From assembly GCA_963575745.1 (NCBI GenBank), contig CAUYUJ010000089.1, positions 62,001-118,426 of the forward strand: a DNA stretch of 56,426 nt. Direction: 5' to 3'. The position numbers and the translations under genes were made by a program. The stretch is from Prorocentrum cordatum. Lineage: Eukaryota. The notes under the pieces were generated by a model. The model saw nothing but the letters and a program-made list of their open reading frames with translations, made no database searches and was not told the DNA's origin. This document shows positions 7,970 to 39,852 of the stretch, in pieces (the first letter of the stretch is position 1; each line of letters opens with the position of its first letter).

Positions 7970-9985
7970 CTAGTATCCTGCCAAAGGCAGGCATTCCTCC
8001 ACTCCCAAAAGGAGTTGTCGGGCAGACTCTAACTCAGCCGCAGCGATAGTGCTCGAGGGGGGGAGGAGGAAAGAGGATGAAGCCACGTTGGGCTCCCACA
8101 TACCACTCGGGAGGAGGGCAGGATAGCCAACAACGGAAGAGAAGCACACATGAAAATCAATCTGCCAGCCACAGCCTACACCCTGATAGGATCTTCCACC
8201 ATCGAAGCTTCCCCGAATGGCGTCGATCAGAATAGCGTTAGCTTTAACATGGGATAGGAAATCATGCCTAAAACGTGTTCTACAAATTCCCTGCCGAGCT
8301 CTGTGTGTTAACTCATCCGCAGCAGTATTGTCCTCCCTGTATACCCACTTGAAGATATGTCTCCCAAGAGAGGCAGCCTGCACACCACATATCTTAGCTA
8401 GAGCGTCTGAGATATTCTGAATACCGCCCACAATGTGGTCGTCATGCACGTTAGCAGTTAAATACAAGCCTTGAAACCACCGCACAACACATTGAGAGTC
8501 TCCCTTCAGTTCAACAGCGAGCTTTCCTGCCTGGAACTCCCACTCCGTGTAATCCTCCAATATCTTAGCATACCGTTTAGACACCACCTCCTCCTTCTTC
8601 CTGCTGAGCTCCTCCGAAAGCATCTCCTCCTCCCTCTCTTCCATAGGCTTCCAAGGAATAGGATCTTTAAGAACCAGGAAATCAGAAACACCAGGAACCT
8701 GGAGTAGCGTAAAAACTTCACGAGCAAACTTGACCCAGGCCGTCTCCGTCCATTCAAGAATATGGTACCAGTATTTCCCTCCCACTAGCTCGAATGGTGT
8801 TCTCCACGGGCGCATGCCAATAGGAACTCGGCCAGTCCTCGCACGAGTCCCAGCACGTCCAGCCTGACTTCCTGAAGAAAATACAAGATGATCCCGCCTG
8901 GTTTTCCACACACCTCCACCGTGCAACATGGACAGTCGCGCCTGCAGGTAGCCGTTGACAGCAGTGCCCGCGTCCACCACCGTGGGCTGATTGTAAAAAC
9001 GGGTTGGGTCCTCGAACCTGTCTCTGAGCCTCGCCGTGTTCTGTGAAAGTTGGGTCCTCGGACGTTTGGCCTCGTTCATGCACATCGTCTTTCTTTTCCG
9101 TCGGTTCATGGGCTCGGAGGGCGTCGTATTACCAGCAGAAGCACCAGGAGCATACATAGGAGACGGCACCTGCTGTGAGCCACCCACTACAGAAGCCTCC
9201 TCAATGTCACCACCGTCTCTGCCAAAACAAGACAATGCAGTATCCTTTGCCCATCTCCACTGCCAGCGCAAGAAGACTTGTGCCAGTGGAGGTCTGCCAG
9301 CGTCACATAACGCTTGCCTCCATCTCCTGTACATACGTGACATGAATACAGCCCACCCCTCCTCCTCCCTCTTAGCTCTCCACGTCATCCTGCTCAACAT
9401 CTCCCCCTCCTCCTTATGTATGAATGCAATTGTTGAACTGTCGACCGTGGCTCCTTCCAGGCCAAAAAGAAACTTAGATCTCACTCTCGATTCATATCGC
9501 TTAAATTTATTATTCCAAGCAATCCTCCTGGAGGTGTAAAAAGCACGATCATTCCAGAAGGCACGAACAGCTTTTCCCATACGGTATCGCACATCATCAT
9601 GACCCTTGAAATTCCTCGCAATCATCGTCCCGAGCACAATAATCTCATCCACCTGCGGAATGGTAATACTCTCAGGGAGGTACGCATTGGGCTCCCTGGT
9701 CATACCTGGCAAGAACAACGTCACCATGAGAGGCTCCGTCACACCGGTGGTAGCTCCCACGTCCACGAACTCAAGACTGCTCTGCTTCCAACGAAAGCCA
9801 TGATCATGGAGAGCCCACGTTAACTGCAGAATCATAGTAGCCAGTGTGGGGCGATCAGGAGCAGTGAGAAGCACATTGTCCGCCCATATGAAGTGACTCA
9901 CAACAATACCTCCAGCCTCACTAGAGAGTCTGACACCAATAGCATCTCTCGCCCAAGCAGAAGTAATATCACCGAACATGACCAA
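7970..9985 (-). pseudogene. RT C-terminal part plus RNase H-like domain (copy 1)
   Basis: FIWADN and VLGT motifs; KGDSQCVV, VYREDNTAAD, FDGG and AAELES motifs. Confidence 0.85.
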
Positions 9986-9999
9986 TGATCGAGCAGTCC

Positions 10000-10782
10000 T
10001 CAGGTCAGGTCCTTCCTTGGAACCTGTCTTAACACACGTTGTCCAAGGGAGCGCATCAGCGCAGACACCCTCAAATTTGAAGACCGCCTCATTTCCAACA
10101 AAAATCTCAAAAGACCATACCGAAGCTCAACATCCACACACAGACGTTCAAGCGTAGAAGAAGCAACTTGGACAGTGAGCGAATCAAATGCAGTGGCAAC
10201 ATCCAAAGAAGCAAGAACGATATTCTCCTCCTTCCCCCACAACCTGGCATGTCTATACATCGCCTTCAAACCCGATGTCACCTCATGTGTCTTGCGACCT
10301 TGCTGAAAGCCATACAGGCACAGAGACGGAGCAACAACAGGAGCAATAGACACCACATGCAAATTGAGTAGAATACACAAGCAGCCCATATACCAAGTGT
10401 TAACAACAGAATTCACAGCAAGTGTACGACTCTCATCAAACTTATTTTCCTTCCCGCTCTTCAACATAATAGATGCACGCATGAACTTCCAAGACTCAGG
10501 TGCCTCCGCCAGTCGCCAGAAGCGTCGCTGGAAACAGTCTAGCACCACACGTAGGGCTTCCCAGGACAAAGAACGTAACATGCGTGCACTTATCCCGTCA
10601 GCACCTACAGCTTTGCCTTCCCGAAGCCTCGAACGAGCACGACAGAGAACATGCATGGTAATAAGAGAAGAAGTGTGAGTGTTGCACGCGCGTGCCACAT
10701 CAGCTTGAACCCGAAGCTGCCCCAGAGTCGCCAAGTCCATAGCAAGACGTCCCTGACCACCCTCGTCATACCCTCCTTCCAC
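10000..10782 (-). pseudogene. Reverse transcriptase N-terminal part (copy 1), frameshifted
   Basis: KAVGADGI, YGFQQGRKT and LDVATAFDSL motifs. Confidence 0.85.
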
Positions 10783-11350
10783 TTACTGCGGTCTTCACAC
10801 CATTCCCCGTCGATCATCATAGAGTTAGTGACTGTCTTAGTCTTGACCCCATCCCGGTAACGATAAAGAAGTAGACGTTTCGTGAACTGCCTTCGAACAC
10901 GATTCCAACGGCGACGACTATCCTTGAACGTGGCCTCATCGATCTGACCAGATTTCCAGAGTTTGTGAACCCTGTAGTGGGCCTCTTTCCTCCTGGGCCT
11001 CCTCCTGGGTCAACTTCGGGACGAGCGAGGCCGATTTAAAGCCATAACAGCGCTTATCGGCAACAGCCCCCTCCTTCAATCGTGATTCCAGGTCGGCTAG
11101 AGAAATAGATCTCAACCTAGTATGCCAAATCACCCTTCCCTCAGACTCCTCCGTGCAGTACTGATTTTTGCGTTTGTTATGTTGGCCACTCCCCCCACCA
11201 GATTTCCACCCAGCAACCTGCGTAACAGCCATATCGAACTCTCTGCACTGTTTCACCCCCTTTCCCTCCAGTACAAACAACGAAGCGAGCGATCGACTGC
11301 CAGTGGCCTTCGTCCTACCAGAGGACTTTCCCTGCAGCGAACATGGGATA

Positions 11351-13357
11351 TCAAAACATAATCTTGTGGTCACTCCATTCCGTGTCACGAGAGCCAGGAG
11401 GATGCGCATACATAACGCGCAACTTCGAACACATAACATGAGTCTCCCAAGTCACAGGGCACGCAACATAATCAATGACATGTTTAGTCCTAGCACCTCC
11501 ACCACACCAGGTAAACTCACGATCCAGGAATGTGTTAATCAGCTTCAGACGTATCTGGGCCATACAGATACACCAGGCACGCGCACATGCACCCTGCAAC
11601 GCCTTCCTGCCAAAGCCCTCCTCCTCCCTCACAGCACGCACATGCACACCACCACCAGAGACACGAAGCCGATCAATCTCAAAATGAGGCTGCACTTCAA
11701 CATTGGCGTCGGCGCACACGACAGCGTCTCGGATACTGTACTTTTGACGCATGCGCTCCACAGCACGAGATAACTTAAGAAGAACGTTCTGGTGCAAATT
11801 GAACGTGGCCTGGTACCCCTCAGACGTTGTCCCAAAGAAGCCTTGCTGAGGAAGATACACGCTAGCATAGATGAATGCGCCCACTTCTGGCCCACGGAAG
11901 GCACAGACCGCAAATCTTCTACCAACAGCGTGCCCCAAGAAACAGGAGTTAAGAGTAGACGAGAATAGTACACCTGCTTGGCCCACTGTCGAACCACTGT
12001 CAAGCTTCACCTCAGCCGAGCAGCGATAGTGGAAACCAGCCTCATTCAACGTACCCCGTCTGAGGAACTGGCACTCCTGGAGCCCGACGAGTTGCACTCC
12101 AAGCTCACGCAAGTAAGGAAGAGCAGATAGAGCAGTAGCATCACTCATCATTCTGATGTTCCAACTGGCCGCCCTCAACGGGCGCGTACGACGCCATACA
12201 GAGTCACCATTCAGCAGCGTCTGCCAGGGCCCAGGGAGAATCTTGTCATCGAACTCAATCACCGATTCTGGCCTCAGAGTCCAACCATGCCTGGGGTCCC
12301 AAGTTCCCAAACATATCTGCCCACCGGTTTCCGGATAGCCCCAAGCCCAAGACATCTCAGGAAGCCCATACTGAATACGTACACGATTGTTCTTCTTCAA
12401 CGGGCTCCTCACACGAAAGTATGTAGCTGTAAGTTTACTGCCTGCACTCACCTGTCCCTCACGCCAAGGCCCACACTGCACTCGAATACTGATGCACGAC
12501 TGGGTAGCTGCAAGAAGAGAGTCATCTTTCCAAAGAGAATCCGCGCGCGAGGAGATGGCCTTCCAGAACACCTCCCTGACCTTCCAGACTGCATCCTTCC
12601 TCGTGCCGTGCACGAGGAAAACACGCAGCCTAAAGACACCGAGCGGCTTGCCCTGGAACTCTCTCTCAGCGGCCTCACGATCGAAGATCTTCACATCAGC
12701 CTCAAACTGCGAGCCAACTTCATCCAAGAGAATATGAATAACTCTGGTGGCCCTGGCCTCGGACATGATGTTACTCGCACGAGCCTGAACGTCTCGAGGG
12801 TATCCCGAAGTCCAGCCCGAGAGCGTCAAGTAACCAGGGACAAATGGGGGTCTCTTCCTAGTGCCTGCATTGCCTCCAAGACTCACCCGAGTAGAAACAG
12901 AGGCAGCATCACTGGCCGCACCATCATTCCCTACCGTCGCCAACTGCTTCTGAACCTGAGCATTTACCACCTCCTGAAGCTGCTGCTGCCTCACCACCTC
13001 CTTCAGTTGTTCAAGGTCACACTTCAAGGGTGCAACCTCCTGCTGAATCTCCCTCATCACGTCCTCCTTGTGCTCCGTCAGGGTACAATTGAGCATATCC
13101 ACCAAATTCTGAAACTCATTACGCAATAGACCAGTCGCGACAGGTTCTTTATCATCTGAAGCGCCCTTACCACCCATCCCAGCACGAGCCATCTTTGAAG
13201 ACCTGGAAGCATCCCCCACCTCGTCCCCCTCAGTGATCTGCTTCATGGAAACATCAGCACAAGCAGCAGCAGCAGCAGCAGATACAAAGGAATGAGCAGG
13301 GCCATTATGCATGACAAGTTGTGGTGGATGGCCAGCAGAGGAAGGGTATGTCGACAT
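11351..13357 (-). pseudogene. ORF1-like coiled-coil protein fused in frame to an APE-type endonuclease (copy 1)
   Basis: ASWNI, GLQEC, SVYLP, ADANV, TW, IDYV and SDH motifs; N-terminal part aligns by eye with ORF1 of copy 2 (FVPGYLTLSGW vs FTPTYLELKGW; GTRKDAVWKV vs GTPRDTLWRV); frameshift after SDH. Confidence 0.85.
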
Positions 13358-13765: not shown

Positions 13766-14575
13766 TTTCTTGCGGTTTGCGGTCCGCCACTAGAATCCGA
13801 ATCCGAATCGGCGGAGCAGTGCAACTGAGCCCCCACCATCTTAGGTAGGTCGCAGCAGAGCGCACGCCACCTTAGCAGCAGCTCTCGTCAGGGCAGCGCA
13901 GGCAGCTAGTTCACAGCAGGTTACCGTGCTACCTGGAGGCAAGCTCATCGCCTCCTCGGCCACATCGTGCCAATGGAAGCTCTGCGAGCTGATGCAGGAG
14001 AAAGAGGAGGGGGAGGAGGAGGAGGAGGAGATGGGAAAATCAACCTGCACGCTGGAACCCCTACCTACAACGCCAATATGAAGCCACCACCCACCTCCAC
14101 ATCCTTCATTACTGACACCCCCATCGAATGCACCACGGAGAGCAGTCTTACGAGTACTGAGGAACTGATCATATGCAAACCAGCGGGTAATAGTTTGGCC
14201 ACCTCTGGCCTCCCACGACAATCTATCCGCACGTTCATTACCCTCACGAAAGAAGTGCTTATACAGATTCTGTCCCGATGCAGGTGAGGTCATTCCCCAT
14301 CCAGACAGCATCGATACCGTATTTTGTAGTGTTCCCACCAGTCGTACATACTGCTTGTTGCGAATCTGCCACTCGCCACACATCCAGTTAACAACCGTCT
14401 TACTATCTCCCAAGATCTCCATCCCAAGACGCTCAATATTCTCACACCTCCACTCCGTTTCATTATCATAATTAGCGGCAATACGTTTGCTAATCCTCTC
14501 ATTCATCTCTCTCTCCTCCTCCTCCTCCGCCTTCACGTGCCTCACACCAGGTGGCCTGGGTAAAACAGTGGCCTC
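13766..14575 (-). mobile_element. 5'-truncated non-LTR retrotransposon copy 1b (RNase H region only)
   Basis: Flanked by an 11-bp direct repeat AGACCTTGGTT (13755-13765 and 14576-14586); T-rich tail at 13764-13771; the target hairpin and subTIR resume at 14587. Confidence 0.85.
13841..14545 (-). pseudogene. C-terminal RNase H-like domain of a LINE ORF2 (truncated, still open)
   Basis: ILGDSKTVVNW, HFFREGNERAD, AFDGG and LPPGSTVTCCELAA motifs. Confidence 0.85.
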
Positions 14576-14682: not shown

Positions 14683-15158
14683 GAGGAGGACGCGGAGGAA
14701 AAGACAGAGTGACGAGGAGAAGGAGGTGGAGGAGGCTGAGGAAGAAGGAGGAGGAGGAGAAGGGGCAAGACGAGAAGGGGGAGAAGGAGGATGAGGAGGA
14801 TGACGAGCAGGAGGGGGAAGGGTGGAGGGGCAAAGGGGGGATAATGATGATGATGAGGAGGAGGAGGAGGAGGAGGAGGGCGAGGAGGAGGAGGAGGAGG
14901 AGAAAGAGGCGAAGGAGCAGATCGAGGAGGAAGAGAAGGAGAAGGAAGAGGAGGAGGAGGAGCAGCAGGAGGAGGAGGAGGAGGAGGGGAGAGGAAGAAG
15001 AAGAAGAAAAAGGAGAACGAGGAGGCGGAGGAGAAGGGGAAGTGGGAGGAGGAGGAGGAGGCGACTGAGGAAGAGAAGGAGGAGGAGGAGAAGAAAGAGG
15101 AGGGGAAGGAAGACAAAAAGGAAGAGGAGAAGGAAGGCAGGGGGGAGGGGAGGAGGAG
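14683..15158 (+). repeat. Purine-rich (GAG/GAA)n simple repeat
   Basis: Direct reading. Confidence 0.9.
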
Positions 15159-16334: not shown

Positions 16335-19300
16335 ACTGGCGCCGGCGGTGAACCGTCAACCTAGTCACCGCCGGGAACCTCGTAGAGCTCCTCACACTGG
16401 TAAGAGTGCTGAGAATCGAAGTAGAGTAACAAAAATAAAGATTTTTCGAAAATCTGTATTATTGATTTTTTCGCTGTTCACATTCGCTCAGTTCCCGGAA
16501 GACAACTCATAAGAAAATACATCAGGAGAGCTTCTGTCAGAGAGGAGTTTATATGCCACTGCGACGCGCAAAAATCTGCTTTCTCAAAATAAATGGTTAA
16601 ATATCTTTCAAAGTTTCGCAAAACCGACCAAAAGTCATCAATTTGTCCGCCCCGGCCGGGTGGGCCAACTGGGCGCCGGCGGTAAACCGTCAACCTTTCT
16701 TACCGCCGGGGGACTCGTAGAGCTTCCTGATAATATATAATGTCGAAACAAATTGCAGATAACGTATAGTTTTTCAGCCTAAGCGATTTCAGACCTCTCG
16801 ATGCAACAGCCGAACGCCCTCCGATGCTTCTGGATTGTCTTCTGTACGAGCTCTGTAGCTCTTCTACAGCCCGAGTTACGTGCGTAAATCGACAGCACCT
16901 CTCAAGATGACTCGAACAATACGAACAGTTTGGCAAACCTAGCTCGAGTATCAGACCGAGTTCAGACCTCTGAATGCGACAAGCGGACGCGTCTGATGTC
17001 TCCGAATCGATTCCTGTGATTACCAGCCCTGCAGCCCCCCTGCAGCCCGAGTTAAGTCCAGAAAGCCGACAGCATTTCTCAGGATGACTCGAACAATACG
17101 AACAGCTTCGCGGACCTAGTTCGGGCAGCAGACCGAGTTCCGAGCTCTCGATTCCACAGGCGGACGCGCCTGATGTCTCCAAATCGATTGCTGTCACCAC
17201 CAGCAGTAGCCCCCCTACAGCACGAGTTGAGTGCAGGAAACCGACAGCATCTCTCAAGATGACTCGAACAATACGAACAGTTTCGCGATTCTGGATCGGG
17301 CAGCAGACCGAGATCAGAGCTCTGGATTTAACAGACAAACGCGACTGATAATTCGCAATCGATTTCTGTGAGAATCACCTCTGTAGCTGTCCTATAGCTG
17401 GAGTTAAGTACAGAAAACCGACAGCGTCTGTCAAGATGACTCGAATAAGACGAATAGGTTTGCGGACCTAGCTCGGCTAGCAGACCGAGTTCAGACCTCT
17501 GGATGCAACAGACGAACGCGCCTGATCATTCTGAATCGATAAGGTGTGCTTACCAGCTCTGTAGCTGTCCTGTATCTCGAGTTAAGTCCAATATACTGAC
17601 AGCGCGTATCAAGATGACTCGAAACGGCCGATCCCGCCGCAGTGATTTTTGGCAGTAAAAGGTACCCGATCGAGCTGAGACCAAGATGGCGAGCGGGAAT
17701 AAGATCGAATACCACGGGAAAAAATACTAGAGCTCTAACGAACGGTTGAATTTCGAGAACAAAATTTTCAACCGACCAAAAATCACCAAAAGGTCCGTCG
17801 AGATTTTTCTTGCCAACTGGCGCCGGCGGTGAACCGTCAACCTAGTCACCGCCGGGAACCTCGTAGAGCTCCTGGCACTGGGAAGAGTGCTGAGGATCGA
17901 AGTAGACTCATAAAATGAAGATTTTTCCAAAATCTTAATTTTCGATTTTTTCGATGTTCATATTCGCTCGGTTCCTGGAGGTCAACTCATAGAAAAATGC
18001 AGCAGGAGAGCTGAGCTTCTGTCAGAGAGGAGTTTATATGCCAATGCGACGCGCAAAAATCTGCTTTCTTAAAATGAATTGTCAAGTATCTTTCAATGGC
18101 AAAACTGACCAAAAGTTGCCACTTTGTCCTTTCTGGCCAGGTGGGCCAACTGGGCGCTGGCGGTAAACCGTCAACCTTCCGGGGGACTCGTAGAGCTTCC
18201 TGATAAAATATATAATGTCGCATAAAAATTGCAGAGAATGAATAGTTTTTCAGCCCAAGCAAATTCAGACCTCTCGATGCAACAGCCGAACGCCCCGATG
18301 CTTCTGGATTGTGTTCTGTACGAGCTCTGCAGCTCTCCTACAGCCCGAGTTACGCGCGTAAATCGACAGCACCTCTCAAGATGACTCGAACAATACAAAT
18401 AGTTTGGCAAACCTAGCTCGTGTATTAGACCGAGTTGAAACCTCTGAATGCGACAGGCGGACGCGTCTGATGTCGCCCAATCAATTCCTGTGATTACCAG
18501 CCATACAGCCCCCCTACAACCCGAGTTAAGTGCAGAAAACCAACAGCACCTCTCAGGATGACTCGAACAATACGAATAGCTTCGCGGACCTAGTTCAGGC
18601 AGCAGACCGAGTTCCGAGCTCTAGATTCGAAAAGCGGACGCGTCTCATGTCTCCAAATCGGTTTCTGTGACTACCAGCACTGTAGCCCTCCCCTACAACT
18701 CGAGATAAGTACAGAAAACCGACAACACCTCTCCAGATGACTCAAGGAATACGAATGGTTTCGCGAATCTAGATCAGGCAAGAGACCGAGTTCAGAGCTC
18801 TGGATATAATAGACGAACGCGACTGATGATTCTCGATCGGTTTTTGTAAATATCAGCTCTATAGCGGTCATAGAGCTCGAGATAAGTACAGAAAACCGAG
18901 AGCGCCTGTCAAGATGACTCAAATAAGACGAACAGGTTTGCGGACCTAGCTCGGCTAGCAGACCGAGTTCAGACCTCTGGATGCAACAGGCGAACGCGCC
19001 TGATCATTCTGAATCCATAAGCTGTGCTTACCAGCTCTGTAGCTGTCCTGTATCTCGAGTTAAGTCCGATATACCGAGAGCGCGTATCAAGATGACTCCA
19101 AACGGCCGATCCCGCCCGTGTGCTGTTTGGCAGTAAAAGGTACCCGATCGAGCTGAGATCAAGATGGCGAGCGGGAATAAGATCGAATATTACGGAAAAA
19201 ATACTAGAGCTCTAACGAATGATTGAAATTCGAGAACAAAATTTCTAACCGACCAACAGTCAGCAAAAGGTCCGTCGAGATTTTTCTTGCCAACTAGCTC

Positions 19301-20454
19301 TCCAGCGCCCCGGAACTGGGCGCCGGCGGTAAACCGTCAACCTCCCTTACCGCCGGGGGACTCGTAGAGCGTCCTGAGCATATATATAATGTCGAAAGAA
19401 ATTGCAGAGAACGAATATTTTTTGAGCCTAAACGATTTCACACCTCTCGATGCAACAGCTAAACGCCGCTCATGCTTCTGGATCGTTTCCTGTGCGCACG
19501 AGCTCCGTAGCCCTCCTCAAGCCCGAGTTACGCGCGAAAATCGACAGCATCTCTCAAGATCACTCGAACAATACAAATAGTTTCGCGAATCTAGCTCGAG
19601 TATCAGACCGAGTTCAGACATCTGAATGCAACAAGCGGACGCGCCTGATGTCTCCCGAATCGATTCCTGTGATGACCAGCCCTGCAGCCCCCGTACAGCC
19701 CGAGTTAAGTGCAGAAAATCGACAGCACCTCTGAAGATGACTCGAACAATACGAATAGCTTCGCGGATCTAGCTCGGGCAGCAGGCTGAGTTCAGGGCTC
19801 TTAATGCGACAGGTGGACGCGACTGATGTCTCTGAATCGATTCCAGTGCTTACCAGCCCTGCAGCCCCCTTACAGCTCGAGTTCAGTGCAAAAAACCGAC
19901 AGCATCCCTTAGGATGACTCGAACAATACGAATAATTTCGCGGACCTAGTTCGGGCAGCAGACCGAGTTCCGAGCTCTCGATTCGACAGGCGAACGCGCC
20001 TGATCTCTTCGAACCGATTTCTGAGATTACCAGCACTCTAGCCTCACTACAGCCCGAGTTCAGTGCAGAAAACTGTGAGCACCTCTCAAGATGACTCCAA
20101 CAACACGAATAGTTTCGCGAACCTAGCTCGGGCAGCAGACCGAGTTCAGACCTCTAGTGCCTGATGATTCGCAGTCGATTTATGTGAGAATCACCTCTGT
20201 AGCTGCCCTACAGCTCGATTTGAGTACAAAATACCGACAACGCGTATCAAGATGACTCGAAACAGCCGATCCCGCCGCGATGCTTTTTTGCAGTAATATC
20301 TAGCCGATCGAGCTGAGATCAAGATGGCGAGCGGGAATAAGATCGAATATGGTGGGAAGAAATACGAGAGCTCAAACGAATTGTTGAATTTCGAGAACAA
20401 AATTTTCAACCGACCCAAAGTCAGCAAAAGGTCCGTCGAGATTTTTCTTGCCAA

Positions 20455-21151
20455 CTGGCGCCGGCGGTGGACCGTCGACCTGGTCACCGCCGGGAAGCTC
20501 GTAGAGCTCCTTGCACGCGTAAGAGTGCTGAGATTTGAAGCAGACAGCTTCTTAGAGCATTTTCTAGAAAAACGTCATAATTGCATTTCTCGGTGTCAAC
20601 GATACGTCGGTTCCTCCAAATGTTTGGATAGTAAAACTCTCACGAACGAGCTGAGCTGCTCGCAAAAGAAAATTAAGATACCGATGCTCGGAGTAACTTG
20701 GTAGCGTCTAAAACCCGGAGAGCGAAGAGAGCCTAAGAAACCGGAAATCCCTCCTGGGGAGTTCTTGGGGGCGCCCCTGCAGCCCTTCCGAAGCACTGCC
20801 AGGAGCGCTTCCACGCGTCCCTGCACGCGCGCAGGCACGCGTGGAAGCTTGCCAGAAGCTCTCCCGGACCAGCTGCCGGCTCGAACAAACTGCTGCGAGG
20901 ATTCTGGAGCGGCGGAGATGGGCTGCTGGCGGGCACCACCACCGCCCGGCTTCTAATCTTAAACCCTCTAGCTCTCAGAGAGCTCTCCGGGAAAAATCTG
21001 CTTTCTCAAAATGAATGCTCAAATATCTTTCAAATCTTCGCAAAACCACCCAAAAGTTACCCCTTTGTCCTTTCTGGCCGGGTCGGCCAACTAGCTCCGC
21101 CCCGCGCCGGAATTTCTCTAGCTCATCGATGACGAAGAGCACTACGAGGTA
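20455..21151 (-). mobile_element. Complete short-family (B) element containing a family-F insertion
   Basis: Hairpin and subTIR at the left, GAGCACTACGAGGTA at the right; the host sequence split at gccaa|ctagctctcc rejoins exactly. Confidence 0.8.
20697..20992 (-). mobile_element. GC-rich ~295-bp family-F element (5'-TCCCGG...CCAAG-3')
   Basis: Splits ctcggagtaa|aaatctgc; inverted repeat cccggagagc (~20714) / gctctccggg (~20982); a homologous copy lies at a different site (37924-38589). Confidence 0.7.
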
Positions 21152-22047
21152 CTAGCTCTCCAGCGCGCCGAAATTACTGGGCGCCGGCGGTGAACCGTCA
21201 ACCTTCCTTACCGCCGGGGGACTCGTAGAGCTTCCTGACAATATATAAGGTGGAAAAAAATGCAGAAAACGAATAGTTTTTCAGCCCAAGCGATTTCAGA
21301 CCTCTCGATGCAACAGCCGAACGCCCCCGATGCTTCTGGACTGTCTTCTTTACGAGCTCTGTAGCTCTCCTACGGCCCGAGTACGTGGGTAAATCGACAG
21401 CACCTCTCAAGATGACTCTAACAAAACGAATAGTTTGGCAACCCAGCTCGAGTATGAAACCGAGTTCAGACCTCTGAATGCGACAGGCGGACGCGTCTGA
21501 TGTCTGCGAATCGACTCCTGTGATGACCAGCCCTGCAGCCCCCCTACAGCCCGAATTAAGTGCAGAAAACCGACAGCACCTCTCAGGATGACTCGAACAA
21601 TACAATAGTTTCGCGGACCTAGTTCGGCAAGCAGAGCGAGTTCCGAGCTCTCGATGCGACAGGCGGACGCGCCTGATGTCTTCAAATCCGTTTCTGTGAC
21701 CACCAGCACTGTAGCCCCCCCCCAGCCCGAGTTGAGTGCAGAAAACCGAGAGCACTGGCGCCGGCGGTGAACCGTCAACCTGGTCTCTCTTTTTTTTGCG
21801 TCTTTGCTGGGACCGTCTTGGCCACTGAGGCCAGGTCCAACAAAGTATCAGGCAAAACAGAGCCTCTTATTCATCACGCAAGCAGTCAGCTCTTATACCA
21901 CACAGCGAAGCTGAAGGAATAAAGAGAATCACATGCCACAATGACACAATCAAACGCAAAGTACACACAGATAAACGAGGAAGCCAGTGAGCAGCGAAGC
22001 TGCAGGAATATACAAGACACGGAAAAGAAGAAACAATGTGTGTCCAA

Positions 22048-25000
22048 TCACTGCGAATGATCAAAGAAGGTCTGCACAACCTGTGGGAGCACCTCGCATA
22101 TGCGCTCCGCCGCCGATAGTTCCGTATCTGTAACAGTGGCGCTCGGTGGTAGACACCAAGCCGCAAGATACACATCCTTGAAAATGATGACGGTCCGCGA
22201 GAAGATATACTTGTTTCGCAGACCAATCTGTATCCATGCACCACAGGCACTTCCGCGGCTACAAACTCCCCCATCAAAGCCGGCTTTGATAAGGCAAGGA
22301 ATATAACACTGAGATTCAAAGTCGTTGAGGTAAACGAAATCGGCGTACACATGGCCCTGACGGGCCTGATGGGTCAGTAAGTCAGCTTTCTGGTTCCATT
22401 CCCGAAACGAATGAGAGAAGAAGTCACGGCCGGCCTCTGGAGGCCTCACCAAGTAAGTTTCCTGCATTTCGTCCAACTTATTAATCAGAGTATCCACCCT
22501 TTTCTGATATACCTGAGCTAATACTTTCCATTTCCCGCAGAGCCAGTTAATAACAAGCAGTGAGTCCCCTTGGATGTCCAGTGGTATCCCATCTGTATCG
22601 AGGTCCCACTGTGTACAACGCATATTATGCAACGCAATACGTTTGCTGAGGCGATCCCTATATGCTGGTGTATCCTCCCGATCCTGACCGATATGAACCC
22701 CTCCATCCTCATCCAAGTTCAAGAACACAGGCACCCCTGAGGACGCCAAACCTTTACACTTCTTTTGGAAGTACTTCAACATAGTACTAGAACAAACATT
22801 AGCAGCGAAATCCATGAAATGCTCAAAACTTCCAGCAAAGAACTCCCACCAGGATAAACCGTAAAACGATTCCAATGAATAATACCACGGACGGAGTCCG
22901 ACGCTCTCCTGTCCCCCCCGATGCCTTTTCATAGAGCTGGCCTCCTTCCAATTTCCCCAACATCTGAGAGCCTCACTTGAATCCGTCCTCATTCTATCCC
23001 ACAGTCGGCCAAACGCCAGACATGAGAAACGAGAATCTCTCCAAGCTCTCATCGAGTTCGCCTCCAACTCCCCCCGATCTGTGATCAGCCTGTGTGCAAA
23101 GTCCTGGATGTCAATTGCCCACATCCAATGCACTCTGAGAAACTTCTGTACAATGCCCACAAAGTGAGCATCATGAATTTTTTGTCTCGCACGTTCATAC
23201 CCCCTCGTATTCCATTCCTGATAACTTTCCCCCTCCCTCCGTATACAGCGAGACATTACAGACAGGCACTTGCCCTCAAAGATATGAAGGGCGCTCAATG
23301 AACTTGAATCGACCGTGCATCCTTCCGCCGCGTAGAGCACAATACTCTGAACTCTCTGAGCATACCTCTCATATTTATCTTTCAACGGGATGGCCGTGGA
23401 GCGGAAGAAGGTCGCCTGCCCCCAGAAGGCCCTGCGAGCACAGTCAATACGAGCGTCCAAATCATGATGTTCATTCACATGTAGTTCAGAACAAATATAA
23501 GCCCCCAGCACCTCCATCTCCGTCGTCCTTCTAAATCGATACACTCCAGACGCCTCCGACCCCACCGAGAGAACAAGATCAGAAGTGTGAAGTATTTCCC
23601 CTTCCACGTCTCGCGGGGGCTCGACCCCGAACACCATGTACAATAGGCTGGATTCCTTCCATCTCATGTCATAATCATGTAACTGTGTAGTTAGACCGTA
23701 TAACATGCGTGTGAGTTCCTCTCGACTCCGAGCCAATACATAACAGTTGTCAGCCCAAAGGAAATGATTAATAATCGAAACACAGCTAGTCGAGCCAGTC
23801 ACATACTCAATACGATAACCTAGTCCTAGTACGTCCCATTCTCGAATCGTGGAGCCCCACATAGCAGCAACAATGAGATTGAAGGCCAACGGTCCCTCGG
23901 GCCCTCCCGTCCGAATACATTTGTCCCACCTAACCTCCACCACCTCAATCCCATCATAATAGACAGTGCCTACACATTCGCACAAGGGGTCAAGTAGAGC
24001 ATACTGTAGGTAAAGGGGTACATCCGCATGATCCAACCCGCGCCTGACATTGGCCACCGTGCAGTGATCGAACGCCTGAAGGACATCAGCGTTCGCCAAG
24101 TGTGCCGTTTCCCCTTTTCCCCATTGTGCAGCATGTTGACCTATGTGTTTGATGCTAGCCGTGATTTCGTGTGTACGACGGTGTTCCTGGAAACCATACA
24201 ACCCAATATGACGAAACACTCCTTTTCTTTCAATATGACCCTCAACCAAGAGAACAACACAGGAACTGAACCATCTCGAAACAGCATTCTGCATACACAG
24301 CAAACGTCCGTCTTTTAACTTAGTGATCCCTGGAGTTTTTGGCATAAAAGAGACGAGAATCTCACGCCACGACTGAGGATACGGAATCGTGAGCTTGATG
24401 ATTTTATCGAACAACTTCTGGATCGCTCTGAGAGCACACCACGGCAAGCTCCTTAGAATCTCGCACGGTATCCCGTCTGGCCCAGTAGCCCTCTGGGTCT
24501 TCAGCCGAGCACGTGCTCTGAGAAGCAGCGCCATACTAATTCCCACAACTGATGTGGAACGTATCTCATGTACAGCCCTCATCCTGATCTCCTCCATCAT
24601 ACTGTTGGTGGAATTGCGTATCTCTTCGGACGACACCTTGCAACGAACGAACTTGTCGAGCTCCTCCTTCCACTCCTCACGGTCCTCCGTCTCCCTCCCA
24701 TCCACCACTAAATGTTTGATAGTATATCTGACCTTTCGTTTTGTTGGGGGGCATCTGCACATAATCATATCACGCCGATAACCTCTGCGTAGACGATTAG
24801 CCTCATTCTTTAACCTCCTCAACCTCTCCACTTCCTCCTTCGGACACATCTTAACCTCCTCCTCCGCTCTTGTGAGCTGCACCGGCCTCGACGGCTCTCT
24901 CGGTCTTCTCGCACCCGTGGTGGAGTAGTCCACCGTCGGTGAAAAGTACGCCTCCAGCATAGTACTCCCCAGACCCTGTGGACAGGTCACAGACGGACAC

Positions 25001-25998
25001 CTTGAAAAGGCAGCACCGCCTAGATACGAATCCACATGCTGTCGAGCCTGATGCTCATCAGCCCAAGTCGAACACTTGTATCCGACCAGAGACGGCCTAG
25101 ACTTCTGACCAGGCTGGGGGTCAGGGCGACGAACAATCACGTTCCCAGGGTCAGTGAAACTCGCCGTGATGATTGCGTGATCGGATAATCTACTGAACTG
25201 CTTCTTCCCACCCCTCTTGAAACACCACTTCACCTCCAGATCCGAGAACTCCCAACGGTGAGGGACCATTAGGTAATCCAGGACCCTCTTCGAAGTCAGA
25301 AACTTGTTCTCCCCCCACGACTCCCAGGTATGCCTCCTAGTACAGAAAGTGTTGGCGGCCTTCAGTCCATGCGATTCCATGAACTCTAACAGCAGCTCCT
25401 TCAGCCTCCTCCTCCGACTCCTCCTTTCAATCTGCTGTGTACCGTCTCCTCCTCTCTCCCACCTTCTGTCCGTACGAGTACCTTCCTTTCCAGTAGCCTC
25501 ATACTCCTCCCCATTATACGTAAATCTGCATCCAGGCGGAATCTCCACGTTTGCATCTAGCAGAACACAAAAGCTGGCCTGAGGAAACTTAGTGCGGAGA
25601 ACATTGCGAGCACGACCGATCTGCTCATATACCTCCGCAGCAATCTCTACACAATCCTCCACATGAGGGTCTGGCAAATACGCTGACACAATAATGAGTG
25701 GTGACTTCTCTGACCCAAAGACACCGATAACGAACCTCGTGAAACAAGTGAAAAACATACGGACGGCAGCCGCCCAAGATCTGTCGAAGATGAGAGCTGC
25801 CTTACTACACGAACTAGTTTTGATGCGCCACCCCAAGCGTTCAAATTCCCCGTGCACTAGGTATTGAGTTTCCTGACATGCAAAGAGCCCACCACATGCC
25901 CTCATATGATGGAGAATCTCAGCACATTTGAAATGAGCCTCCCCTGCTTTGTTCAGGTTCCAGCTCGCCAAGCGTATGCCTCGGACGAGGCGCCGCAA
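22048..25998 (-). CDS. LINE ORF2: APE endonuclease, reverse transcriptase and RNase H-like domain
   Basis: ASWNL, CQET, SAYLP, LDANV, HTW, LDY and SDH; ATGPDGI, YGFQ, ADVLQAFD, FLWADN and VLG; QGDSLLV, HSFREWNQKAD, FDGG and TELSA; no ATG before the first APE motif. Confidence 0.95.
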   Translation of the reverse strand: MRRLVRGIRLASWNLNKAGEAHFKCAEILHHMRACGGLFACQETQYLVHGEFERLGWRIKTSSCSKAALIFDRSWAAAVRMFFTCFTRFVIGVFGSEKSPLIIVSAYLPDPHVEDCVEIAAEVYEQIGRARNVLRTKFPQASFCVLLDANVEIPPGCRFTYNGEEYEATGKEGTRTDRRWERGGDGTQQIERRSRRRRLKELLLEFMESHGLKAANTFCTRRHTWESWGENKFLTSKRVLDYLMVPHRWEFSDLEVKWCFKRGGKKQFSRLSDHAIITASFTDPGNVIVRRPDPQPGQKSRPSLVGYKCSTWADEHQARQHVDSYLGGAAFSRCPSVTCPQGLGSTMLEAYFSPTVDYSTTGARRPREPSRPVQLTRAEEEVKMCPKEEVERLRRLKNEANRLRRGYRRDMIMCRCPPTKRKVRYTIKHLVVDGRETEDREEWKEELDKFVRCKVSSEEIRNSTNSMMEEIRMRAVHEIRSTSVVGISMALLLRARARLKTQRATGPDGIPCEILRSLPWCALRAIQKLFDKIIKLTIPYPQSWREILVSFMPKTPGITKLKDGRLLCMQNAVSRWFSSCVVLLVEGHIERKGVFRHIGLYGFQEHRRTHEITASIKHIGQHAAQWGKGETAHLANADVLQAFDHCTVANVRRGLDHADVPLYLQYALLDPLCECVGTVYYDGIEVVEVRWDKCIRTGGPEGPLAFNLIVAAMWGSTIREWDVLGLGYRIEYVTGSTSCVSIINHFLWADNCYVLARSREELTRMLYGLTTQLHDYDMRWKESSLLYMVFGVEPPRDVEGEILHTSDLVLSVGSEASGVYRFRRTTEMEVLGAYICSELHVNEHHDLDARIDCARRAFWGQATFFRSTAIPLKDKYERYAQRVQSIVLYAAEGCTVDSSSLSALHIFEGKCLSVMSRCIRREGESYQEWNTRGYERARQKIHDAHFVGIVQKFLRVHWMWAIDIQDFAHRLITDRGELEANSMRAWRDSRFSCLAFGRLWDRMRTDSSEALRCWGNWKEASSMKRHRGGQESVGLRPWYYSLESFYGLSWWEFFAGSFEHFMDFAANVCSSTMLKYFQKKCKGLASSGVPVFLNLDEDGGVHIGQDREDTPAYRDRLSKRIALHNMRCTQWDLDTDGIPLDIQGDSLLVINWLCGKWKVLAQVYQKRVDTLINKLDEMQETYLVRPPEAGRDFFSHSFREWNQKADLLTHQARQGHVYADFVYLNDFESQCYIPCLIKAGFDGGVCSRGSACGAWIQIGLRNKYIFSRTVIIFKDVYLAAWCLPPSATVTDTELSAAERICEVLPQVVQTFFDHSQ

Positions 25999-26001
25999 AC
26001 G

Positions 26002-27388
26002 TCACTGCCTACGATTCACTTCCTGAAGTATATCATTCATGGGAACCTTCAGCGCCGGATAAAAAGAAACAATACGAGCCCATGCATCAGCATGAAGAAC
26101 CCAAGCCCCTGTGGTATTCGTATACGTCGCAAAACAGACGGGTCGGAAATTCGGAACAGCTTGAGTCCAAATCTGACTTCTCGGTGGCCCCACCTCCCCA
26201 CGGATCTCGATTTGAACATGAGCCGAGGTCATACTACGCCAAGTCCCACAGAAACGAGCAACCGCTTTCACATGATCACGCTTCCAGGGTGCACACTCCA
26301 CTAACGTACGAATCTTTCTGGGATCGATTGGCGTGTCCATATCATGAGTGAGAACATCGGCATCTGGATACGTATAACCTGGGGGCGGGGCAATGCGATC
26401 GGCGGGTTCCTTACAGACCATATCCATCCATTTCTTTACTCTCCAAAGAGTGTCCCGTGGTGTCCCTTCTTTGAAACCGACCTTCAAACTGCCGTACATA
26501 TATCTTCCTCCGTTTAATCGTTCAGTTTTATCTTTATCGTAAGCATTCCTTTCCTCCCCCTGAAGTGTCCCAAATCATATTTGATATTAACTGTGCCGCA
26601 TCTGCCCAGGGTATCATTTGATTTCCCCGATTTACTTGATTCGACCAATCCGTAACCCACCCTTTCAGCTCTAGATAAGTTGGTGTGAACTGGCTCGATC
26701 GCTCCTGTTGCACGCGAGGGATCGAACCTCCACCACCACCAGAGGACCCACCAGGGCCCACACTAGTCGAAACCGAAGCTGCAGGAGATCCAGCCAAAAT
26801 TTGCTTAACCTGTTTCTCCAAAATATCTGTCCGTGCATCTGATTTGTCCATTCTCTCCGTATGCAACTTGAGTGTGTCATCAACTCTTTTGATGTCCGTC
26901 TTCGTCGATTGAACAACATGGATGAGATCCTCATGGGCATCCTCCGTTTTCCAAACATGCTTCATCATCATCTGTTTGAATGGATCCTTCTCCTTTTCTA
27001 ACATCACTTTCCTCTCCTCCTCAATCTCTGTTCCACGTGCACGTTTGGATCGAGTCTCACCATCCCCAGTCATCGCGGCATCCGCCGCTGCTGCAACATG
27101 AGTCATATCTTCAAGAATATTACCGTTCAATCCGTATTTATCTAACCAGCTCCTATCGTCCTCACGTTGACGTTTGTTTGATGCTGCCTCCAGTGCCTGC
27201 AGATCTTTCTGATCCCACGGCTGGTATTCCTCAAGGTAATCAAAGTTGACTCTCTCGTCCTGGTAGTCTTCTGTGGGTATGTCCAAATTCCTTTGACGCC
27301 GAAACCACTCCTCAGTACTTTCACCCCAATGCTCGAGTCCTATCTCTCTCCTCAATGCCAGCTGAGCCTCAGGACTGTCGTACGACAT
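26002..27388 (-). CDS. LINE ORF1 (coiled-coil region), split by a 1-nt frameshift near 26572
   Basis: Likely ATG at 27388 (MSYDSP). Removing one T in atttggg joins the 348-aa and 165-aa ORFs into ...NMIGTLQGEERNAYDKDKTERLNGGRYMYGSLKV..., which matches copy 1 (FDREAAERE). Confidence 0.75.
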
Positions 27389-27626
27389 GATGTCAACAAC
27401 GATCCACACACAAGTAACTACCACTCGTTCAATAAGAGGTACTGAATGCAGACAGACAATGAACAGCAATGCAGCACACCAGAGAATCTCAATACCACGA
27501 AGAAGAATACAGCGTACAATACAAGAGATGTAGAGTAGGCAGACAAAAACCTCGAGGGAACCCAGGCAAGCCAGGCTCACACCCCGAGGCCAGGGCTCGC
27601 TAGAACGTCTGGAGGTTCCCCAGGCA

Positions 27627-27658
27627 GAGACGTTCTTGAGCCGAGACGTTCTTGAGCC
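27627..27658 (-). other. Spliced-leader relic GGCTCAAG (x2, within a 16-bp duplication) at the 5' end of LINE copy 2
   Basis: Minus strand reads GGCTCAAGaacgtctc GGCTCAAGaacgtctc; the dinoflagellate SL ends ...TTTTGGCTCAAG. Confidence 0.7.
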
Positions 27659-29011
27659 GGGAACCTCGTAGAGCTCCTTGCACGCGTAAGAGCAGACAGC
27701 TTCTCAGATTTCTAGAAAAACACCGAATTCCGATTTTTCGGTATCAACATGATGTCTGTTCCTCCAAATGTTTAGATATCAAAACTCCCCCCAGACGGCT
27801 GAGCTGCTCGAAGAAGGAAGTTTAGATACAAATGCTCGGAGTAAAAATCTGCTTTTCCAAAAAAATAAATTGTCAAATATCTTTCAAACTGGGCGCCGGC
27901 GGTAAACCGTCAACCTCCCTTACCGCCGGGGGACTCGTAGAGCTTCCTAAGCATATATAATGTCGGAAAAAATTGCAGAGAACGAATAATTTTTCAGCCT
28001 AAACGATTTCGGACCTCTCGATGCAACAGTAAACGCCCCTCATGCATCTGGATCGTTGTCTGTGCGCGCGAGCTCCGTAGCTCTCGTACAGCGCGAATTA
28101 CGTACGAAAACCGACAGCACCTCTCAAGATCAGTCGAACAATACAAATAATTTCGCGATTCTAGCTCGAGTATCAGACGAGTTCAGACATCTTAAAGCAA
28201 CAGGCGGACGCCACTGATGTCTGCGAATCGATTCCTGTGATTACCAGCCCTGCAGCTAAAGCCCGAGTTGAGTGCACAAAAACGACAGCACCTCTGCAGA
28301 TGACTCGAACAATACAAATAGCTTCGTGGACCTAGCTCGGGCAGCAGGCCGAGTTAAGAGATCTAAATGCGACAGCTGGACGCGATTGATGTCTTCGAAT
28401 CGATTCCAGTGATTACCAGCACTGCAGCCCCCTTACAGCTCGAGTTAAGTGCAAACGGACAGCGGCTCTCAAGATGACTCGACGAATACGATCCTAGGGT
28501 AGCACGCCGAGTTCCGAGCTCTGGATTCGGCAGGCATACATGTCTGATGTCTCTGAATCGATTTCTGTGAGTACGAGCCCTGTAGCCCCCCTACAGCCCG
28601 CGTTAAGTGCAGAAAACTGTCAGCACTTCTCAAGATGACTCCAACAAGACGAATCGTTTTGTGAACCTAGCTAAGGCAGCAGAGCGATTTCAGACTTCTA
28701 GATGGACAGACGAACGCACCTGATGATTTGCAATCGATTCCTGTGAGAATCAGCTCTATAGCTGACCTACAGCTCGAGTTCAATGAAAAATACCGACAAC
28801 GCGTATCAAGATTTCTCGAAACAGCCGATCCCGCCGCGATGCTTTTTTGCAGAAATATTTACCCGATCGAGCTGAGATCAAGATTTCGAGCAGGAATAGA
28901 TCGAATCTGGTCAGGAAAAATACTAATGCCCAAACGAATTGTTGAATTTTGAGAACAAAATTTTCAACCGACCCAAAGTCAGCAAAGGTCCGTGGAGATT
29001 TGTCTTGCCAA

Positions 29012-32298: not shown

Positions 32299-33520
32299 TA
32301 ACTCGTAGAGCTTCCCTTAGCAAGTTATTGCTGGAAGCTTAAGAGTAGTTCCGGGGCGCTGGAGAGCTAGTTGGTAAGGAAAATCTCGACGGACCTTTTG
32401 CTGACTTTTGGTCGGTTGAAAATTTGGTTCTCGAAATTCAACAATTCGTTTGAGCTCTAGTATTTTTTCCCGTGATATTCGATCTTATTCCCGCTCGCCA
32501 TCTTGATCTCAGCTCGATCGGGTACCTTTTACTGCCAAAAAGCAGGCAGGCGGGATCGGCCGTTTCGAGTCATCTTGTCACGCGGTGTCGGTTTTCTCAA
32601 AATAACTCGAGCTTCAGAACAGCTAAAGAGCTGGTAAGCACAGCTAATCGATTCAGAATGATCAGGCGCTTTCGCCTGTTGAACCCAGAGGTCTGAATTC
32701 GGTCTGCTAGCCGAGCTAGGTGCGCAAACCTATTCGTATTATTCGAGTCATCTTGACAGGCGCTCTCGGTTTTCTGTACTTAACTCGAGCTACAAGACAG
32801 CTGAAGAGCCGATACGTATAGAATCTGATTCAGAATCATCAGTGGCCGTTGTTTGTTGAATGCAGAGCTCTGAACTCGGTCTGTTGCCCGATCTAGAATC
32901 GCGAAACTATTCGTATTGTTCGAGTCGCTTGCGAGATGCTGTCGGTTCTCTGCACTTAACTCGGGCTGTAGGGGGGCTGCATGGCTGGTAATCACTGGAA
33001 TCGATTCGGAGACATCAGGCGCGTTCGTCGGCGGAATCCAGAGCTCCGACCTCGGTCTGTTGCCCGAACTAGGTTCGCGAAACTATTCATATTGTTCGAG
33101 TCATCCTGAGAGATGCTGTCGGTTTCCTGCACTTAACTCGGCTGCAGGGGGGGCTGCAGGGCTGGTAATCACAGGGATCGATTGAGAGACATCATACGCG
33201 TCCGCCTGTCGCATGCAGAGGTCTGAACTCGGTCTGATACTCGAACTAGGTTTGCCAAACTATTCGTATGGTTCGAGTCATCTTGAGAGGTGCTGTCGAT
33301 TTACGCACGTAGCTCCGGCTGTAGGAGAGCTACAGAGCTCGTACAGAAGACAATCTAGAAGCATCGGCGGCGCTCGTCTTTTGCATCCGAGAGGTCTCAA
33401 ATTGCCCGGGCTGAAAAATTATTTGTTCCTGTGTAATTTCTTTCGACATTATATGTTGTCAGGAAGCTCTACGAGTCCCCCGGCGGTAAGAAAGGTTGAC
33501 GGTTCACCGCCGGCGCCCAG
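32299..33520 (+). mobile_element. Complete long-family element in the opposite orientation (1222 bp); defines the element structure
   Basis: Inserted in gagttatg|ttcagaaaacc with no TSD; 5' subTIR ACTCGTAGAGCTTCC (32301-32315) with internal IR GGAAGCT (32333-32339); central ~177-bp repeats; 3' subTIR GGAAGCTCTACGAGT (33462-33476); hairpin 33480-33513; CCAG end. Confidence 0.9.
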
Positions 33521-38589: not shown

Positions 38590-39852
38590 ATTGCAAAACC
38601 ACCCAAAAGTTACCACTTTGTCCTTTCTGGCCGGGTCGACCAACTGGGCGCCGGCGGTAAACCGTCAACCTTGGTTACCGCCAGGAGACTCGTAGAGCTT
38701 CCTAACTCGACTTACGTTGAGAAGACAGACAGCACTTACCAACAATCTGACTTATAGTCAATAGTTTTTGACCTCTGAATGCGACAGACGGACGCGTCTG
38801 ATGTCTTCGAATCGACTACTATCATTACCAGCCTGCAGCCCCCCTACAGCCCGAGTTAAGTGCGAAAACCGACAGCATCTCTCAGGATGACTCGAACAAT
38901 AGGAATAGTTTCGCGGACCTAGTTCGGGCAGCAGACAGAGTTCAGAGCTCTGTATTCGACAGGCGGACGCGCCTGATGTCTTCAAATCGATCCCAGTGAT
39001 TACCAGCCATGCAGCCCCTCTACAGCCCGAGTTAAGGCCAGATAACCAACAGCATCTCGCAAGCGACTCGAACAATACGAATAGTTTCGCGATTCTAGAT
39101 CGGGCAGCAGACCGAGTTCAGAGCTCTGGATTCGACAGACAAACGCAACTGATGATTCTGAATTCGTGCCTGTGAATATCAGCTCTGTAGCTGTCCTACA
39201 GCTCGAGTTAAGTGCAGAAAACCGAGAGCGTCTGTCAAGATGACTCGAATAATTCGAACAGGTTTGCGGACCTAGCTCGGCTAGCAGACCGAGTTCAGAC
39301 CTCTGGGGTCAACAGGCGAACGCGCCTGATCATTCTGCATGTATTAGCTGTGCTTACCAGCTCTGTGACTGCCCTAAAGCTCGAGTTATGTTCAGAAAAC
39401 CGTCAGCGCATATCAAGACAACTCAAAACGGCCGATCCCGCCACCGTGCTTTTCGATAGTAATATTCACCCGATCGAGCTGAGATCAAGATGGCGAGCGG
39501 GAATAAGATCGAATATCACGGGAAAACAAAATAGAGCTCAAACGAGTTGTTGAATTTCGAGAATAAAACTGGCGCCGGCGGTGAACCGTCAACCTCGTCA
39601 TCGCCGGGAACCTCGTAGAGCTCCTTCCACGCGTAAGAGTGCTCATAGTCGAAAGAACGATTTTCTAGAAGCGTTTTTGGAAGAAGAGAAAATTTGGTTT
39701 TTTTCGTGTCGACATGAAGATGGTTGCGCCAAGTGTTTTGATAGTAAAAGTGCGCCGACAGAGCTCGTATTAAGACGGAGAGGCCTTCATAGTTATTTGC
39801 AGGTGCGAAAAATCTGCTTTCTTAAAATGAATTGTCAAATATCTTTCAAATA

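Follow-up and report, generated by a model that had tools for sequence, protein, structure and literature searches.

Does the ribonuclease H (RNase H) domain that closes a retrotransposon protein of the dinoflagellate Prorocentrum cordatum run through its fold in the usual order? We examined a window of 56,426 nucleotides of this genome (NCBI GenBank assembly GCA_963575745.1, contig CAUYUJ010000089.1, positions 62,001 to 118,426 of the forward strand; coordinates below count from the first letter of the window), in which the minus strand encodes open reading frame 2 (ORF2) of a long interspersed nuclear element (LINE). A preliminary description of this DNA had claimed that the C-terminus of ORF2 is a circularly permuted RNase H of archaeal or plant type. 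Swapped profile matches, half-wise hhalign comparisons, the order of elements in an AlphaFold2 model and half-wise structural matches all bear this claim out. We consider it very probable that the ORF2 C-terminus is a type-1, archaeal-type RNase H (aRNH) in the form of a natural circular permutant, shared by a large marine retrotransposon family.

Order of the RNase H halves in the window and in the family

Residue numbers such as D79 and E227 count along the last 250 amino acids of ORF2, which contain, in succession, IPLDIQGDSLLVINWLCGKW, FFSHSFREWNQKADLLTHQARQG, LIKAGFDGGVCSRGSACGAWIQIG and LPPSATVTDTELSAAE, followed by the stop codon. Translation places G78-D79-S80 at 22569-22561 and F175-D-G-G178 at 22278-22267 on the minus strand, as first reported, and the motifs of this copy (copy 2) follow one another as GDSLLVINWLCGKW, FREWNQKADLL, FDGGVCSRGSACGAW and LPPSATVTDTEL. 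The half encoded first (C-half, the canonical C-terminal half) holds GDS...W and then H.YRE.N..AD, and the half encoded last (N-half, the canonical N-terminal half) holds FDGG and then T...EL. A tblastn search with ORF2 picks up two more copies elsewhere in the window (25-37% identity): copy 1 sits within an older, frameshifted element and copy 1b is a 3' fragment. Both show the motif succession of copy 2 within one open frame, with the two halves in the same frame, and tblastn and models of the halves confirm that the swapped order is common to three diverged copies (~30% identical).

Searching 1.84 billion representative proteins with the 250-residue piece by phmmer gave 166 matches with E<=1e-3, of which 50 reach <=1e-10 and 11 reach <=1e-30. 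An alignment of 76 rows, named A1, combines the window piece with 75 of these matches (<=330 aa, covering >=110 query residues), most of them 20-35% identical to the window piece. Using separate hidden Markov models (HMMs) of the C-half and the N-half on 151 relatives, with E<1e-3 counted as a match, we found that 149 match and that 101 of them carry the C-half followed by the N-half, 42 the C-half only and 6 the N-half only. Canonical order or a repeated half occurs in 0 of the 151, and the same set holds no tandem or canonical-order intermediate. The 42 C-only relatives all end 0-65 residues past the C-half, and we therefore take them to be truncated predictions. Across the family the gap between the half-matches has a median of 17 residues (range -1 to 35). 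An HMM of canonical RNase H finds both halves in 41 of the 151 relatives, always swapped. Each half is homologous to the parent half at the opposite end, without a second copy of either, as is expected of a circular permutant.

Among the named relatives are database entries titled 'unnamed protein product [Prorocentrum cordatum]', at 85-95% identity, and others that EukProt labels Pyramimonas sp., at 77-89% identity to the LINE tail; most other relatives come from marine metagenome or metatranscriptome assemblies. The entries from Pyramimonas sp., a green alga, are P0013, P0021, P0030, P0158, P0159, P0161 and P0162, and may reflect either a shared element or dinoflagellate sequence in that transcriptome set. 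Full-length ORF2s of 1299-1455 aa occur identically on several contigs, which suggests intact elements.

Arrays of ~177-bp satellites make the window highly repetitive. In such a setting, a rearrangement during assembly, an inversion or duplication confined to this region, or motifs that look alike by chance might mimic a swapped order. We regard such an artefact as extremely improbable: three copies at ~30% identity share the order in single open frames, 101 independent database proteins from several sources have it in common, and shuffle controls (below) exclude chance. Contigs of other sequencing runs also cross the junction at 22300-22360 unbroken (X1 record 3 covers 22151-22593 and X8 record 18 covers 22239-22387).

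Each half compared with canonical RNase H

Against sequences of the Protein Data Bank (PDB), the A1 profile matches 4e19, 3u3g, 3aly, 2ehg, 4h8k and 3hst (E 1.9e-9 to 6.9e-5). The best match, 4e19_A (E 1.9e-9), is aligned in swapped order, with profile positions 30-104 on chain residues 134-197 (GDS...RE.N..AD) and positions 95-187 on residues 45-128 (FDG...T..AE); five RNase H sequences besides 4e19_A score E 5e-7 to 7e-5. A search of 5.8 billion proteins with the A1 profile supplied the canonical proteins P0163-P0168, and a search from P0164 supplied 31 more; 25 canonical RNase H proteins make up alignment A3, the template for hhalign. The C-half of A1 aligns to A3 with probability 98.8 and E 8.9e-17 (overall 98.8-99.1, E 9e-17 to 1e-18). 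The whole domain gives two hits in exchanged order, Q34-120 to T76-151 (probability 98.8) and Q127-195 to T15-74 (probability 81.9, P 1.1e-5). Submitted alone, the C-half reaches probability 99.1 and the N-half 90.7 (P 1.2e-6, query 5-70 to template 17-72). In 48 column shuffles of the N-half the highest probability was 1.3 and the lowest P 0.039, and the reversed alignment scored 0.1; these controls exclude a chance resemblance. A comparison of the family with the single sequence of E. coli RNase HI aligned the C-half only weakly (E 0.055, probability ~1%) and was set aside, and tblastn against plasmids for canonical RNase H gave 5 chance-level matches (E 3-7). A language-model feature search with the 206-residue domain leads to RVT_3 and RNase_H clusters (scores 0.90-0.92), which we treat as support at the level of a lead.

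The alignment pairs D176 with canonical D7, T222 with T42, E227 with E47, D79 with D71, R133 with R114 and N136 with N117, and D140 with the Asp of the canonical AD motif. All four catalytic carboxylates are present by alignment, namely D176 (beta1), E227 (alphaA), D79 (beta4) and D140 (alphaE). R133 aligns with the invariant R114; an Arg rather than a His at the active-site position before alphaE is the aRNH hallmark according to passages of PMC5348765. Both halves are matched best, in sequence as in fold, by archaeal-type cellular RNase HI (Sulfolobus tokodaii 3ALY/2EHG, Halobacterium 4E19 and the metagenomic LC11 3U3G). The LINE domain shares with it GDS.LV..Q/W..G.W, R-E-x-N-x-x-A-D with the aRNH Arg, FDGG, T...E on alphaA and the alignment of all four acidic residues. 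It differs in its rotated connectivity, the linker of ~18 residues, the change of the TNN motif to T-V-T, a long alphaA, an extra leading helix and the fusion to a LINE reverse transcriptase (RT).

An AlphaFold2 model of the 250-residue piece (mfbe0641e73b3), with A1 as input, has a mean predicted local distance difference test score (pLDDT) of 87.4 and a predicted template modelling score (pTM) of 0.81. The first 44 residues of the modelled chain are disordered, and block means are 83-98 from residue 41 onward. As predicted here, the piece is one compact domain with the full set of RNase H elements in rotated order; the canonical connectivity beta1-beta2-beta3-alphaA-beta4-alphaB..alphaD-beta5-alphaE is not followed, although all its elements are present. 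The structure prediction that the preliminary description had called for has returned one confident domain. The chain would enter the fold at beta4, continue through alphaB, alphaC/D, beta5 and alphaE, cross the linker of ~18 residues that bridges the ancestral C- and N-termini, and finish with beta1, beta2, beta3 and alphaA. The RT would thus connect into beta4, and the ancestral alphaA-beta4 loop would have become the new pair of termini. D176, E227, D79, D140 and R133 are predicted to lie within one RNase H-like domain, in which they would share an active-site geometry.

Whole-model searches with sequential aligners find no whole-domain match: the best Foldseek TM is 0.26, with 3aly_A at rank 32, and VIA-align against 48,161 chains reaches at best Z 5.4 on unrelated folds. 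We attribute this failure to the permutation, so it is no evidence of a new fold. With VIA-align, residues 62-152 alone of the model match 3u3g_D (Z 4.3), 4e19_A (4.0) and 3aly_B (3.8) over 76-79 residues. The top match of a tail-only model (91 aa, pLDDT 93.7) among the 48,161 chains is 3u3g_D residues 1-69, with Z 5.4 and a root-mean-square deviation of 2.4 Å over 67 residues. The tail also matches 3aly_B 1-70, 1goa_A 1-64 and 2lsn 1-77, and RNase H enzymes or RT chains account for 13 of its best 50 rows. Predicting the halves as separate chains (single-sequence ESMFold2, with the alignment unused) gave a score of 0.17 against a mark of 0.34, which speaks neither for nor against the permutation.

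We also looked for a canonical N-half upstream of GDS and found none: hhalign against A3 gives a probability <=0.2 in 4 of 4 windows covering ORF2 residues 850-1140 in six aligned full-length ORF2s, and in these six the canonical HMM matches the C-terminal domain only. The preliminary statement that no DG motif precedes GDS is literally wrong for copy 2, where DEDGG (D32-G33-G34 of the piece) lies at 22713-22699. We rejected DEDGG as a hidden beta1 motif: the stretch is not conserved, has a pLDDT of 44-51, is absent from the closest full-length relative, P0002, and lies in upstream windows unlike a canonical N-half. Downstream of it, R54 (39/46 sequences) and W65 (51/55) are conserved at or just after the leading helix, which occupies the canonical alphaA position before beta4 without the catalytic Glu. 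In P0007, the canonical-HMM alignment extends over this helix at alphaA spacing, with Lys in place of the catalytic Glu, and hhalign finds no significant similarity between the helix and canonical alphaA. These features are compatible with a relic of the alphaA of a first copy, which is speculation.

Activity, origin and related systems

The four catalytic acidic residues, which the preliminary description had seen retained in the window copies, are kept together with the archaeal-type Arg in 95-99% of the aligned family sequences. Their conservation leads us to read the domain as a functional RNase H, which would degrade the RNA of the RNA:DNA hybrid after target-primed reverse transcription and so allow synthesis of the second DNA strand, the usual role of RNase H in retrotransposition. 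A 1351-base stretch that includes the junction between the halves is present, whole or in part, in 20 of 24 listed sequencing runs, and contigs of four runs span it entirely. Seven of the 20 runs are recorded as RNA, and all but one of these are poly(A) marine metatranscriptomes. Among the 32 listed (of 39) single-base differences in the ORF, 17 are synonymous, against an expectation of 21% with all changes equal and 33% with transitions only (P 7e-5 to 0.014). At the level of such sequence counts, the excess hints at purifying selection on a mixture of live and decaying copies. The earlier claim that the permutation is maintained by selection gains indirect support from this excess among near-identical copies in RNA libraries and from catalytic columns that stay near-invariant at 20-35% identity. 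At 22190 (ORF2 codon 1271) the window has A (Val) and all contigs of four runs have T (Asp), a change that looks private to this genomic copy.

Several observations weigh against a permuted, working RNase H. Pfam makes no RNase H call in the window ORF2, in the 250-residue piece or in the tail. The window C-half alone scores 13.2 bits against RVT_3 (cut-off 21.6) over profile positions 62-104 of 123, and the TNN motif before the catalytic Glu is altered to T-V-T. Evidence for the N-half is weaker than for the C-half: its stretch on 4e19_A has 14.7 bits and an i-Evalue of 0.16, six canonical proteins give its HMM scores of 10-18 bits, a shallow profile of 7 N-half sequences has zero PDB matches, and six N-half fragments have zero Pfam matches. 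With half-model Z-scores of middling size (3.8-5.4), which unrelated alpha/beta folds equal, the structural matches of the halves support the permutation but do not prove it. An in-frame TGA at 26002-26004 (minus strand) splits ORF2 from an upstream 190-codon frame, some related copies in the runs carry a stop variant or a 2-nt insertion inside the domain, and presence in RNA libraries does not amount to proof of transcription. The window domain also lacks a full-profile, N-to-C match to RVT_3 (PF13456) above the curated threshold, and its N-half emerges solely through profile-profile comparison and out of order. Within the family, RVT_3 is matched at E<=0.1 by 40 of the 76 A1 members (best 5.8e-8), and 7 of 19 further relatives scanned singly match it, only at profile positions 57-123, in the C-terminal half.

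The scores of the window copy below Pfam thresholds and the altered TNN motif would also suit a decayed pair of neighbouring RNase H domains, of which only the C-half of the first and the N-half of the second survive, as an inactive tail of ORF2 with a structural or nucleic-acid-binding role. A degenerate first RNase H beside an acquired one is known from retroelements (PMC4408406, in part). We nevertheless find this account unlikely: decay would lose the four acidic residues and the Arg that are almost always kept at 20-35% identity, AlphaFold2 packs both halves into one confident domain, and the missing outer halves leave no trace in any member. Slightly less likely still is an active permuted RNase H-like nuclease with a changed job, such as DNA nicking for the second strand or processing of the element's own RNA. 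Here the replacement of the substrate-contacting TNN motif counts in its favor, as do new termini that adjoin the active-site face, a leading helix whose conserved R54 and W65 have no canonical counterpart, and an ORF2 N-terminus without a recognisable endonuclease family in Pfam and PDB sequence searches. Yet no positive pointer to another substrate emerges, the nearest relatives by sequence and fold are all hybrid-cleaving type-1 RNases H, and the aRNH-type Arg is kept.

Smyshlyaev et al. 2013 reportedly described aRNH at the C-terminal end of L1-type LINE ORF2. According to passages of PMC5348765, the L1 ORF2 of plants (Ta11) and oomycetes ends in an aRNH with a CCHC motif upstream of it, and a Repbase screen found aRNH elements in these two groups only. 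As far as those passages go, the plant and oomycete elements resemble the LINE studied here in bearing an archaeal-type RNase H at the extreme C-terminus of the ORF2 of a non-LTR retrotransposon (one that lacks long terminal repeats). They differ in its canonical order, in the CCHC motif, which a regex search found in none of 5 full-length ORF2s, and in their hosts, which here are dinoflagellates or marine plankton. The acquisition of archaeal-type RNase H by LINEs is thereby extended beyond plants and oomycetes. Dual RNase H domains in retroviruses and in Tat/Archon LTR elements have been duplicated, acquired and partly degraded, according to parts of PMC4408406 and PMC10508981; there, two complete domains stand side by side with one degenerating, whereas here a single set of elements is rotated.

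A tandem stage is the usual route to circular permutation, and the preliminary description had named a tandem duplication that lost its outer halves as a possible origin. Circular permutants of E. coli RNase HI engineered in folding studies suggest that the fold tolerates new termini; these are laboratory constructs, whereas the LINE permutation is natural and family-wide. In the literature searched, whose coverage is incomplete (most subscription journals and the Repbase reports lie outside it), no paper reports a retroelement with a naturally occurring, circularly permuted RNase H, and a prior description is possible. A fuller account, which in our judgement stands at even odds, would make this the first naturally permuted type-1 RNase H, catalytically active and the sole RNase H topology of a whole, abundant, transcribed LINE clade of dinoflagellates or marine plankton. 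The permutation would have arisen by tandem duplication of an aRNH at the C-terminus of ORF2 with later loss of the outer halves, and the conserved leading helix with R54 and W65 would be the last remnant of the alphaA of the first copy.

RNase H is a textbook fold, serves as a model for protein folding and forms a core module both of retroelements and of retroviruses. If a whole family carries it in naturally permuted form, its catalytic architecture survives a rewiring of the chain; such a family offers a natural test case for the effect of chain topology on folding and for how permutations arise. A permuted order would also account for the failure of standard domain scans to detect RNase H in such LINEs, and surveys of retrotransposons in the genomes of dinoflagellates and marine plankton may therefore under-report LINEs that bear RNase H.

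The LINE and the rest of the window

ORF2 scores E 3.3e-5 and 24.1 bits against Pfam RVT_1, under the cut-off of 29.6, which its full-length relatives P0007 (34.3 bits) and P0018 (32.3 bits) pass. An Atlas feature search leads to RVT_1 clusters, and the closest solved structure by sequence is human L1 ORF2p (8c8j, E 0.015). Judged from its sequence, ORF2 has the RT that identifies a non-LTR (LINE) retrotransposon. Pfam and PDB sequence searches matched no endonuclease family in ORF2 residues 1-330; SWN near the start and SDH near residue 285 are motifs that might be read as APE-like. The stop-to-stop frame of ORF2 has no ATG near its start, and this copy is either interrupted by the TGA or read through. 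Pfam finds zero matches in the 190-residue piece upstream. Farther upstream, the 389-codon ORF is likely ORF1, with chance-level Pfam matches only. The element is multi-copy, with three diverged copies in the window and many variant copies in sequencing runs. No LTRs came to light, in an analysis that made no search aimed at them. Coordinates are collected in Table 1.

Table 1. Features of the LINE copies and of the predicted permuted domain (copy 2 unless named otherwise; kept, fraction of aligned A1 sequences with the residue)
Feature	Positions	Residues	Strand	Basis or remark
LINE ORF2	22048..26001		minus	1317 codons + stop (22048-22050); ORF list, translation
RT core of ORF2	23659-24201	ORF2 601-781	minus	Pfam RVT_1
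190-codon open frame	26005-26574		minus	same reading frame as ORF2
Upstream 389-codon ORF	26534-27703		minus	other frame; 41-nt overlap with 190-codon frame
Copy 1, predicted permuted domain	8000..8530 (C-half 8530-8288, N-half 8224-8000)		minus	tblastn; half-HMMs C 66.9 bits, N 53.5 bits
Copy 1b, predicted permuted domain	13874..14431 (C-half 14431-14198, N-half 14146-13874)		minus	tblastn 30% identity; half-HMMs C 95.9 bits, N 72.8 bits
Whole predicted permuted RNase H domain	22051..22668	45-250 (ORF2 1112-1317)	minus	leading helix, C-half, linker, N-half; AlphaFold2
Leading helix	22621..22668	H45-60	minus	AlphaFold2 secondary structure
First-encoded half (canonical C-terminal half)	22360..22587		minus	beta4, alphaB, alphaC/D, beta5, alphaE; hhalign, PDB profile matches, VIA-align
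beta4		E72-78		AlphaFold2
G78		78		kept 62/63
D79 of GDS, on beta4	22564-22566	79	minus	kept 60/63
alphaB		H81-87		AlphaFold2
W86		86		kept 64/66
alphaC/D		H96-116		AlphaFold2
beta5		E128-130		AlphaFold2
H130		130		kept 68/76
R133	22402-22404	133	minus	C-half; kept 75/76
E134		134		kept 72/76
N136		136		kept 75/76
alphaE		H137-147		AlphaFold2
D140	22381-22383	140	minus	C-half, alphaE; kept 73/75
Linker, old C-terminus (alphaE end) to old N-terminus (beta1 start)	22306..22359		minus	18 residues, poorly conserved
Short elements in linker region		E152-155, H160-165		AlphaFold2
Last-encoded half (canonical N-terminal half)	22054..22305		minus	beta1, beta2, beta3, alphaA
beta1		E166-180		AlphaFold2
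D176 of FDGG, on beta1	22273-22275	176	minus	kept 73/74
G177		177		kept 73/74
beta2		E183-196		AlphaFold2
beta3		E206-217		AlphaFold2
alphaA		H223-249		27 residues, long; AlphaFold2
E227 of T222...E227, on alphaA	22120-22122	227	minus	kept 59/62

The older diverged LINE copy lies at 7970-12193 (minus strand) in frameshifted, fragmentary form; its RT and RNase H pieces are scattered across three frames (10844-8168), and a piece resembling the N-terminal part of ORF2 stands apart at 12193-11357. Tandem repeats with a 9-bp period occupy 14734-15100, directly upstream of the copy 1b fragment. Outside the LINE copies, the window is for the most part built from a ~177-bp repeat unit, arrayed in several diverged subfamilies at ~16800-21850 and 28100-56426. 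Some of these arrays are inverted, for example the arms 32423-33125 and 38866-39568, which are 88% complementary, and a 550-codon open frame lies within the satellite-rich part at 47626-49278 (minus strand).

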